Notes under the pieces: generated by a model
What the model was told of the DNA's origin: nothing
Seen by the model: the letters and a program-made list of their open reading frames with translations, nothing else
The model's database searches: none
DNA from: Shigella phage sb1
Sequence record: PQ666539
Direction: 5' to 3' (one strand)
Length of the DNA: 64,000 bases
Shown here: piece by piece, positions 52,328-53,236 of the stretch
How the letters are laid out: every line of letters begins with the position of its first letter
Numbering within the stretch: position 1 is the first letter of the stretch
Position numbers and translations under genes: made by a program

Positions 52328-53236
52328 TTAAAGGTCATTCAAAAGTTCATCCAGGTCCGTGTCATCAGCACTAGATGAACTGCCAGAGCTTGAGCTCATA
52401 AAATCATCTTCAGTTTTTGTATTGAAGTCGTCAACATTGAATGCATCCAAATCATCAGCAACTGTATCAGCTTTCTTAGCGGCAGTCGCTGAGGCACCAC
52501 CCATCGCAGCAGTTCCCATAACTTGACTGAATTTAGTGCTCAGTTCTTCAAACGATTTGAATTTATCTTTAGAAGTCATTTCAGAAAGGTCAACCAGTTG
52601 TTCGAACAGTTCTTTCTGGAAAGATTCATCATCAATGTTTGGAATCGCAGATTGATTCAGGAATTTAGATTCGTCGTAGTTACTAAAACCAGAAACTTGT
52701 TTAACTTTCAGTACAAAGTTAGCACCTTCCCACGGACAAGTTACATCAACCGGAGTTTCACCCATTTCAACATCAACTGCAATCATTGCATTGATTTTAT
52801 CCCAGATTTTCTTACCAAAACGGTATTTAAATACTTTACCTTCATTTTCTGGAGCAGCCGGGTCTTTTACTACAAGAATGTTAGCCCAGTAAGAAGTTTT
52901 ACGTTTAACAAGACCGTACTCTTTATTGTCAGTGTTATACAAATCATTTTTACTGATATACTGACATACTGGGCAGGAATCGTAATCACCGTGGGTAGAT
53001 GAACATGTTTCAATATACCATTTACCATTTTTATTGAAACCGTGATTTACAAGAATTGCGAATGGTGCTTGTTCATCATTTTTAGACGGAAGAAAACGAA
53101 TTACTGCTTGACCGTTACCCGCATTATCGAGTTTCAGTTTCAACTCGCCTTTATCTTCAGAAGAAAAACCACCTTTATTTCCAGCCAGTTTAGCCATTTG
53201 CGCAGCGAGTTAAGCAGTAGATTTACGTTTAAACAT
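52328..53236 (-). CDS. 32: Single-stranded DNA-binding protein gp32, interrupted by in-frame TAA at 53210-53212 (codon 9)
   Basis: MFKRKSTA(stop)[22 protein letters not shown]...; span 302 codons (T4 gp32 301 aa). Confidence 0.9.

Follow-up and report, generated by a model that had tools for sequence, protein, structure and literature searches.

The closest described counterpart of the locus studied here is gene 32 of the T-even phages. T4 gene 32 has classical conditional-lethal nonsense mutants: in the amber and ochre mutants, one single-base change gives rise to an early in-frame stop, and laboratory T4 mutants of this type carry one or a few nonsense codons, all of one type, and grow on a suppressor host. 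gp32 depends on an N-terminal cooperativity segment, which includes the KRKST 'LAST' motif (PMC535899). The gene 32 operator consists of a 5' pseudoknot of about 28 nt and, next to it, over 40 nt of unstructured sequence holding UUAAA/UAAA repeats and the ribosome-binding site (PMC535899). A further described system is technical in nature: C>A/G>T artefacts produced in sequencing libraries by oxidative DNA damage are documented, and are characterized by a CCG>CAG context preference, a read-orientation bias and a low allele fraction (Costello et al. 2013, PMC3616734).

The window, i.e., the whole 64,000-nt stretch of DNA that was analysed, is a segment of a T4-like phage (Tequatrovirus) spanning gp15 through gp37. 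It shares 95-97% identity with Escherichia phage Ec_YwIITB1 and with the Shigella phages pSs-1, sb2, sb3 and sb4, and no identical record is present among the 50,697 genomes of the phage collection. Its gene 32 is the same gene as that of T4 and T6 and lies in the neighbourhood rnh-dsbA-33-59-32-frd.3; segG is absent between genes 59 and 32, as in T6 and unlike T4. The Pfam domain, the zinc ligands and the acidic C-terminus of T4/T6 gp32, as well as the UUAAA/UAAA half and the pseudoknot sequence of the operator, are all found in the window. In contrast to the uninterrupted gene 32 of T4 and T6, however, the window copy exhibits a stop at codon 9, six private replacements and one broken pair in stem 2 of the pseudoknot (53277). 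The reading frame is organized as follows:

52328..53236, minus strand: full-length gene 32 frame, 302 codons plus stop
53210..53212, minus strand: in-frame TAA at codon 9 (Glu9 in relatives), with G>T at 53212, from comparison with relatives
52328..53197, minus strand: longest uninterrupted gene 32 ORF, 289 aa, beginning at Met14

The sequence TTAAATTAAATTAAAAAGGAAATAAAA precedes the ATG at 53236-53234 (minus strand), which is the start of the gene 32 frame. The TAA at 53212-53210 (minus strand) is located 24 nt downstream of this AUG and cuts off the KRKST 'LAST' motif (residues 3-7), encoded as MFKRKST, from the rest of the protein. An internal in-frame ATG (Met14) is found five codons downstream of the TAA, with no Shine-Dalgarno-like sequence upstream of it. 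A continuous ORF including the N-terminal cooperativity segment (about 20 residues) is absent; the open ORF starts from Met14. This 289-aa ORF matches the Pfam gp32 family PF08804 (E=6.6e-65, profile positions 1-208 of 208) and aligns with residues 14-301 of PDB 8gme (full-length T4 gp32), the matches to the PDB 1gpc core and to full-length 8gme both having E<=1e-144; the Pfam and PDB matches indicate that the core DNA-binding domain of gp32 is present. Furthermore, H65, C78, C88 and C91, which we take to be the gp32 zinc ligands, and the Ser/Asp-rich C-terminus remain invariant when the window protein is aligned with those of T4, T6, pSs-1 and Ec_MI-02.

Comparison with related phages defines the nature of the change. 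GAA (Glu9) occupies codon 9 in T4, T6, pSs-1, Ec_MI-02, SP1, SH7, Ec_YwIITB1 and sb2, and the annotated gene 32 CDS measures 909 nt in T6, pSs-1, sb2, sb3, sb4, Ec_MI-02, SP1, SH7 and Ec_YwIITB1 and 906 nt in T4. The full-length gp32 frame of the window is 96-97% identical in protein to those of T4, T6, pSs-1 and Ec_MI-02. None of the 649 phage records that match the first 87 nt of gene 32 by blastn reaches 100% identity; the best of them have one mismatch, which in T6 (the only one aligned) is the G of GAA. The 26-mer containing the TAA was not found in IMG/VR or in JGI metagenome contigs, its GAA version occurs in IMG/VR, and the exact 289-aa product has no match on record. Judged from these alignments, the codon 9 change is a G>T private to the window sequence. 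The initial annotation had described an in-frame TAA at codon 9, derived from GAA, with an ORF opening only at the internal Met (53197). The sequence and the translated frame agree with this description, the longest ORF being the 289 aa from that Met; GAA in all relatives examined corresponds to a G>T change, alignment to T4 gp32 places Glu9 (GAA) at the TAA site, and all related gp32 proteins start at the upstream Met, none at the internal one.

Besides E9*, six private changes affect gp32 residues that are otherwise invariant. Private changes in gp32 are thus more numerous than so conserved a protein would lead one to expect:

53142, minus strand: W32L, private G:C>T:A at an invariant gp32 residue
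53033, minus strand: K68N, private G:C>T:A at an invariant gp32 residue
52492, minus strand: A249S, private G:C>T:A at an invariant gp32 residue
52346, minus strand: D297E, private G:C>T:A at an invariant gp32 residue
52597, minus strand: M214L, private A>C at an invariant gp32 residue
52464, minus strand: K258T, private A>C at an invariant gp32 residue

The translational operator was inspected in the same manner. Its two parts are listed below, the stem assignment being presumably that of the T2/T6 gene 32 pseudoknot structure:

53237..53275, minus strand: A/U-rich unstructured operator half, with UUAAA/UAAA repeats and the Shine-Dalgarno AAGGA
53276..53307, minus strand: operator pseudoknot, stem 1 TGACC/GGTCA and stem 2 GCTATG/CATAGC (stems assumed as above)

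The stretch 53237-53272 is identical to that of SP1 and T4, and one AATTA unit is missing from the A/U-rich half in T6, pSs-1 and Ec_MI-02. The pseudoknot reads CATATC in the window vs CATAGC in T4, T6, SP1, Ec_MI-02 and pSs-1. The underlying private G>T at 53277, a position where G is invariant in the five aligned relatives, breaks a C-G pair of stem 2; ten of the eleven modelled pairs are kept in the window, and 53277 accounts for the one unpaired cell of the 63 in the six sequences. Rfam returned no family for the gene 32 pseudoknot, only a match below threshold to the DUF2815 RNA motif. The operator (53237-53272) had been described as intact, which is correct for the A/U-rich part but not for the pseudoknot. 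Two related points of the initial annotation do not hold: the TAA is not just inside the operator, since at 24 nt past the AUG it lies outside the operator elements (PMC535899), and the protein is not alone in being affected, the same G:C>T:A process having struck the pseudoknot at 53277.

This process is readily apparent across the entire window. The whole window was aligned to three, and then to five, related genomes, and a change was considered private when all other genomes agree at the site. Relative to the five genomes, the window carries 263 private G:C>T:A changes, vs 17 in pSs-1, 38 in sb2, 41 in Ec_YwIITB1 and 53 in sb3, while the remaining substitution classes of the window are at ordinary levels. 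The load amounts to about 1.2-1.35% of the G:C sites of the window:

1..64000, no strand assigned: G:C>T:A excess, 127 G>T and 136 C>A private changes

The G:C>T:A changes are strand-symmetric and are spread across the window with mild heterogeneity. No sequence context is detectable at positions -3 to +3 around the mutated G sites, where the base frequencies equal the background.

The relation of these changes to selection was evaluated by sorting private changes into synonymous, missense and stop, in genes aligning without length change, and comparing them with random hits. For the G:C>T:A class of the window the observed distribution is 20/134/23, against a neutral expectation of 12.3/141.3/23.4. 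The private transitions of the same window give 197/41/0, against 79/154/6, and the G:C>T:A changes of pSs-1, taken as a clean RefSeq control, give 5/5/0, against 0.7/8.0/1.3. The same result is obtained with three reference genomes. Private A:T>T:A changes in the window exhibit purifying selection, as the transitions do, and A:T>C:G changes are few. The transitions are therefore strongly purified, as expected of real divergence, and the G:C>T:A class of the window, which agrees almost perfectly with the neutral values, never passed through the filter of phage viability.

At the scale of gene 32, G>T or C>A would make a stop at 32 sites, and the roughly 980 nt of the gene 32 locus as a whole contain six G:C>T:A hits, matching the window average. 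The stop is not beyond chance, because 0.37-0.43 nonsense hits are expected in this gene at the window-wide rate, with P(>=1) of about 0.3; the view of it as more than a chance event is not sustained. Nor is there support for a discrete nonsense mutation of gene 32, as had been implied, considering that 32 other stops occur in 22 other genes and that the class is unselected. In total, 33 premature stops (26 TAA, 4 TGA and 3 TAG) are found in 23 of the 77 genes compared, many of these genes being essential; nearly all of the stops are produced via GAA>TAA, GGA>TGA, GAG>TAG, TCA>TAA or TAC>TAA. In addition, three start codons (in gp15, gp34 and one small gene) and one stop codon (in gp51) are lost. 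The lesions outside gene 32 are the following:

575..577, plus strand: gp15 start lost, ATG>ATT (G>T)
1858..1860, plus strand: gp16 (small terminase) codon 153, GAA>TAA
2975..2977, plus strand: gp17 (large terminase) codon 366, GGA>TGA
3461..3463, plus strand: gp17 codon 528, GAA>TAA
4125..4127, plus strand: gp18 (tail sheath) codon 128, GAA>TAA, a stop also in sb2/AKR2 (PQ666540)
10042..10044, plus strand: gp22 (scaffold) codon 25, TCA>TAA
10312..10314, plus strand: gp22 codon 115, GAA>TAA
11617..11619, plus strand: gp23 (major capsid protein) codon 274, TTA>TAA, the only stop not from G:C>T:A
19075..19077, plus strand: uvsW.1 codon 11, GAA>TAA
20141..20143, minus strand: uvsY codon 8, GAA>TAA
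21609..21611, plus strand: gp51 codon 102, GAA>TAA
22053..22055, plus strand: gp51 stop lost, TAA>CAA
22634..22636, plus strand: gp27 (baseplate hub) codon 194, GGA>TGA
23075..23077, plus strand: gp27 codon 341, GAA>TAA
23897..23899, plus strand: gp29 (tail-length/hub) codon 65, GGA>TGA
25684..25686, plus strand: gp48 codon 67, TAC>TAA
27586..27588, minus strand: hypothetical gene, codon 93, TCA>TAA
29449..29451, minus strand: alt codon 178, GAG>TAG
35336..35338, minus strand: hypothetical gene, codon 57, TAC>TAA
39687..39689, minus strand: hypothetical gene, codon 22, GAA>TAA, start also lost (ATG>ATT at 39750-39752)
43017..43019, minus strand: Rz-like spanin codon 29, GAA>TAA
43382..43384, minus strand: alc codon 73, GAG>TAG
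43196..43198, minus strand: alc codon 135, GAG>TAG
44391..44393, minus strand: rnlA codon 132, GGA>TGA
44238..44240, minus strand: rnlA codon 183, GAA>TAA
43665..43667, minus strand: rnlA last codon 374, TAC>TAA
48397..48402, minus strand: nrdA codons 124 and 125, adjacent, both GAA>TAA
55607..55609, plus strand: gp34 start lost, ATG>CTG
56717..56719, plus strand: gp34 (proximal long tail fibre) codon 371, TCA>TAA
56786..56788, plus strand: gp34 codon 394, GAA>TAA
57647..57649, plus strand: gp34 codon 681, GAA>TAA
59156..59158, plus strand: gp34 codon 1184, GAA/GAG>TAA
60109..60111, plus strand: gp35 codon 209, GAA>TAA
61230..61232, plus strand: gp36 codon 190, TCA>TAA

The window is otherwise nearly free of indels: 70 of the 79 end-mapped genes have the same length, in four the difference is a multiple of 3 nt, and in five it is 1-2 nt. 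Neither suppression nor code reassignment can rescue the interrupted genes, because TAA, TGA and TAG all serve as conserved terminators of normal genes in the window and no tRNA gene is present within the 64-kb window. A strictly lytic phage with the window sequence would be unable to form a plaque.

The records of the sibling phages provide a useful comparison. Four phages were obtained from one Kolkata lake, the records being derived from plaque-isolated phage lysates by Illumina shotgun sequencing, with enzymatic fragmentation, a PCR-amplified Illumina NovaSeq library and SKESA assembly (PMC11993411). The published values are a G+C content of 35.16% and 285 proteins for ADG1 (PQ666539), 35.49% and 254 proteins for AKR2 (sb2, PQ666540), 35.52% and 255 proteins for CDR3 (sb3, PQ666541), and 35.35% and 291 proteins for TMC4 (sb4, PQ666542) (PMC11993411). 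Over the shared alignment columns, the G+C content is 35.85 for the window, 36.01 for sb4, 36.12 for sb2 and 36.14 for sb3, an order (window < sb4 < sb2 ~ sb3) that reproduces the published ADG1 < TMC4 < AKR2 ~ CDR3. The window is probably part of PQ666539 (ADG1), which has the lowest G+C content of the four and a protein count inflated relative to AKR2 and CDR3; PQ666540-542 rank among the records nearest to the window.

Among the siblings, sb4, which is 95-96% identical to the window, exhibits an equal kind of load: 153 private G:C>T:A changes, unselected, with a synonymous/missense/stop distribution of 6/83/22. Many of its essential genes are likewise fragmented, gp14, gp15, terS, rnlB, uvsW, gp26, gp27, gp28, gp48, alt, ligase, rnlA, nrdA and td being annotated in pieces. 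Unlike the window, sb4 also has an unselected A:T>T:A load (15/54/13), and its gene 32 is intact, with GAA at codon 9 and 909 nt. The window and sb4 have 15 G:C>T:A changes in common, vs about 2 expected from independent hits and about 4-5 expected if sharing were proportional to shared transitions, as in other genome pairs. Such sharing between records, of which the gp18 codon 128 TAA in common with sb2 is another case, is not predicted by purely independent random errors; hot spots, reads common to the records or cross-contamination may lie behind it.

Collectively, these findings point to an error of the record. The codon 9 TAA is very probably one hit of a non-biological G:C>T:A noise fixed in the sequence record, and not a property of the living phage; it is read in this way because the G:C>T:A class shows no trace of selection. 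The noise would be a product of the sequencing or assembly workflow of the sibling records. Its physical origin can be proposed only tentatively, and the following scheme is somewhat less than an even bet. Copying of 8-oxoG (oxidised guanine) gives G>T, and abasic sites under the polymerase 'A rule' give G>T plus A>T. Template guanines may have been damaged, either to 8-oxoG or to abasic sites copied by the 'A rule', and copying of these guanines in library amplification would generate G:C>T:A errors. If each position was covered by only a small number of independent templates or reads, an additional bottleneck that has to be postulated, the errors could have become consensus through low effective coverage. 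The combination of G>T and A>T is the pattern seen in sb4.

The window resembles the 8-oxoG library artefact (Costello et al. 2013) in the substitution class, in its non-biological character and in its independence of coding consequences, and its excess is restricted to C>A/G>T (263 vs 17-53 in four relatives). It differs in that the artefact has a CCG>CAG context and a low allele fraction, while the CCG>CAG preference was not found around the mutated G sites of the window and the changes stand in the consensus sequence, on which the analysis was made. Nanopore miscalls at glucosyl-hydroxymethylcytosine were also considered as the primary cause and discarded: the siblings were sequenced on Illumina NovaSeq, there are hardly any indels and there is no local context. 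A literature search for nanopore errors at this base gave nothing specific.

Several readings that would leave the TAA a real base were weighed against a record error. A genuine ochre mutation in a viable phage, with gp32 supplied by an ochre-suppressor host or through re-initiation at Met14, might appear natural: the codon is truly TAA, an in-frame ATG lies five codons downstream, the remainder of gp32 is recognisably intact and the classical T4 gene 32 nonsense mutants offer a precedent. It is nevertheless extremely improbable, since a single suppressor would be insufficient for 32 more stops of all three kinds and three lost starts, no tRNA gene is present in the window, the change belongs to the unselected class and the TAA occurs in none of the relatives examined. 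Against the one or few nonsense codons of laboratory T4 mutants, the window has 33 stops, of all three types, distributed over 23 genes, and the pattern of a T-even conditional-lethal mutant (few stops, one suppressible type, genome otherwise intact) is not observed. As for re-initiation, Met14 is not preceded by a Shine-Dalgarno sequence, and its product would be devoid of KRKST and of the N-terminal cooperativity segment required by gp32 (PMC535899). The probability that TAA, TGA and TAG are decoded as sense, by reassignment or by programmed read-through, is negligible. Such decoding would have to replace five amino acids (Glu, Gly, Ser, Tyr and Leu) with no suppressor tRNA in the window, while the same three codons end normal window genes at positions conserved in relatives, and in the close relatives (95-97% identity) the standard code applies at each premature-stop position. 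Although stop codons are recoded in some phages, the normal terminations and the varied amino acids replaced effectively refute genetic-code reassignment here.

The changes could also be real but unselected, if the record derived from one or very few non-viable molecules that had been heavily and lethally mutagenized by oxidation, whether in vivo or in the environment. G:C>T:A is the product of 8-oxoG and of MutM/MutY-type mutagenesis, and the neutral synonymous/missense/stop profile is compatible with any process that operated once the final round of selection was over. This is still very unlikely: about 260 fixed mutations per 64 kb in a single replication lineage are implausible for a lytic phage, and hits that are partly common to sibling records point to the workflow and not to the history of one molecule. 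Furthermore, the sibling records come from shotgun sequencing of a lysate (PMC11993411), which samples a population of genomes; lesions arising there independently and at random could not become the consensus. An alteration of the window after deposition, by computational corruption or simulation, would be in line with context-free and strand-symmetric hits, but is highly improbable given that the public sibling PQ666542 has the same class-specific unselected load and that the published G+C content and protein count of PQ666539 fit the window; uniform random corruption would, moreover, not keep to one of six substitution classes.

That the T at 53212 is the true base of the phage stock, with gp32 obtained by ochre read-through or suppression or by re-initiation at Met14, can hardly be credited. 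Were it true, the Met14 route would yield a gp32 without the LAST motif and would challenge the view that the N-terminal segment is indispensable. The gene 32 stop is instead a sequence artefact, noise and not biology. Its significance lies in the record itself: a 64-kb window of a probably public phage genome carries about 260 spurious substitutions, and a sibling record has a like load. Such errors split essential genes, raise gene counts and lower the G+C content, and the records would contaminate comparative, pseudogene or 'novel truncated protein' analyses. Other findings in the window that depend on one G>T or C>A change, such as stops, lost starts, odd missense changes and broken RNA stems, should be discounted likewise, and the same caution toward single-base G>T/C>A oddities extends to the sibling records.

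In the window, the gene 59-gene 32 intergenic region (53237-53340) does not contain the segG homing-endonuclease gene; it spans about 100 nt and resembles that of T6, unlike T4, where segG is present between the two genes. The gene 32 leader (53234-53295, minus strand) gives a sub-threshold Rfam match to the 'DUF2815 RNA' motif (17.6 bits, E=0.73, with a gathering score of 41.2), carried mainly by ...UUAAAAAGGAAAUAA.AUG, which may reflect chance or a common A/U-rich leader type. The A/U-rich half of the operator shows a natural length polymorphism of 5 nt (AATTA) in the 53262-53266 region (minus strand), the extra unit being present in the window, SP1 and T4 and missing from T6, pSs-1, Ec_MI-02 and SH7.

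The private G:C>T:A changes, i.e., the unselected G>T and C>A substitutions at sites where all other compared genomes agree, are slightly more clustered than expected from a uniform process, with five pairs lying at most 3 nt apart across the window. Clustered, non-G:C>T:A and length changes, together with lost start codons, are found at the following positions:

48397-48402, minus strand: adjacent nrdA codons 124 and 125, both GAA to TAA
575-577: gp15 start codon lost, changed to ATT
39750-39752: start codon of the small gene adjoining cd lost, changed to ATT
55607-55609: gp34 start codon lost, changed to CTG
22053-22055: gp51 stop codon changed to CAA
11617-11619, plus strand: premature stop at codon 274 of gp23 (major capsid), TTA to TAA, a T>A change
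14774-15223: small gene, 1 nt shorter than in pSs-1
35840-36206: small gene, 1 nt longer than in pSs-1
40614-40743: small gene, 2 nt shorter than in pSs-1

The changes at the gp34 start and the gp51 stop are not of the G:C>T:A type, so unselected substitutions of other kinds also make a minor contribution. The gp23 stop is the sole nonsense codon of the window outside the G:C>T:A class. The length differences of 1-2 nt in the three small genes are apparent frameshifts, which may be either natural or erroneous; apart from these, the window has few indels.

The same syndrome is observed in the public record of the sibling phage sb4/TMC4 (PQ666542). Its 153 private G:C>T:A changes have an unselected profile (6 synonymous, 83 missense and 22 stop), and its annotation breaks over a dozen essential genes into fragments. 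The sb4 record additionally carries a likewise unselected A:T>T:A load (15/54/13), which is not seen in the window. In the record of the closest relative, Ec_YwIITB1 (PQ356294), the annotation splits hoc, nrdB and the major capsid protein into two pieces each and gives a shortened frd; this record, too, may contain errors, even though it shows no more than a mild rise in G:C>T:A changes. Furthermore, one phage record has its best match, at 99% identity or higher, to part of window 40001-64000, and could represent a close relative of a sub-segment of this region.

Some substitutions are common to the window and the sibling records. The GAA to TAA change at codon 128 of gp18 (tail sheath; window 4125-4127) creates the same stop in the GenBank record of sb2/AKR2 (PQ666540, 4240-4623), where the annotation of the sheath gene is split in two pieces. 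A common nonsense codon in an essential gene is not predicted by independent random error; it points to hot spots, to reads shared by the sibling assemblies or to cross-contamination among them. Window-wide, 15 derived G:C>T:A states are common to the window and sb4 when compared against four other genomes; about 2 would be expected if hits were independent, and about 4-5 at the ratio to shared transitions found for other genome pairs. This excess hints that the error process is in part site-specific.
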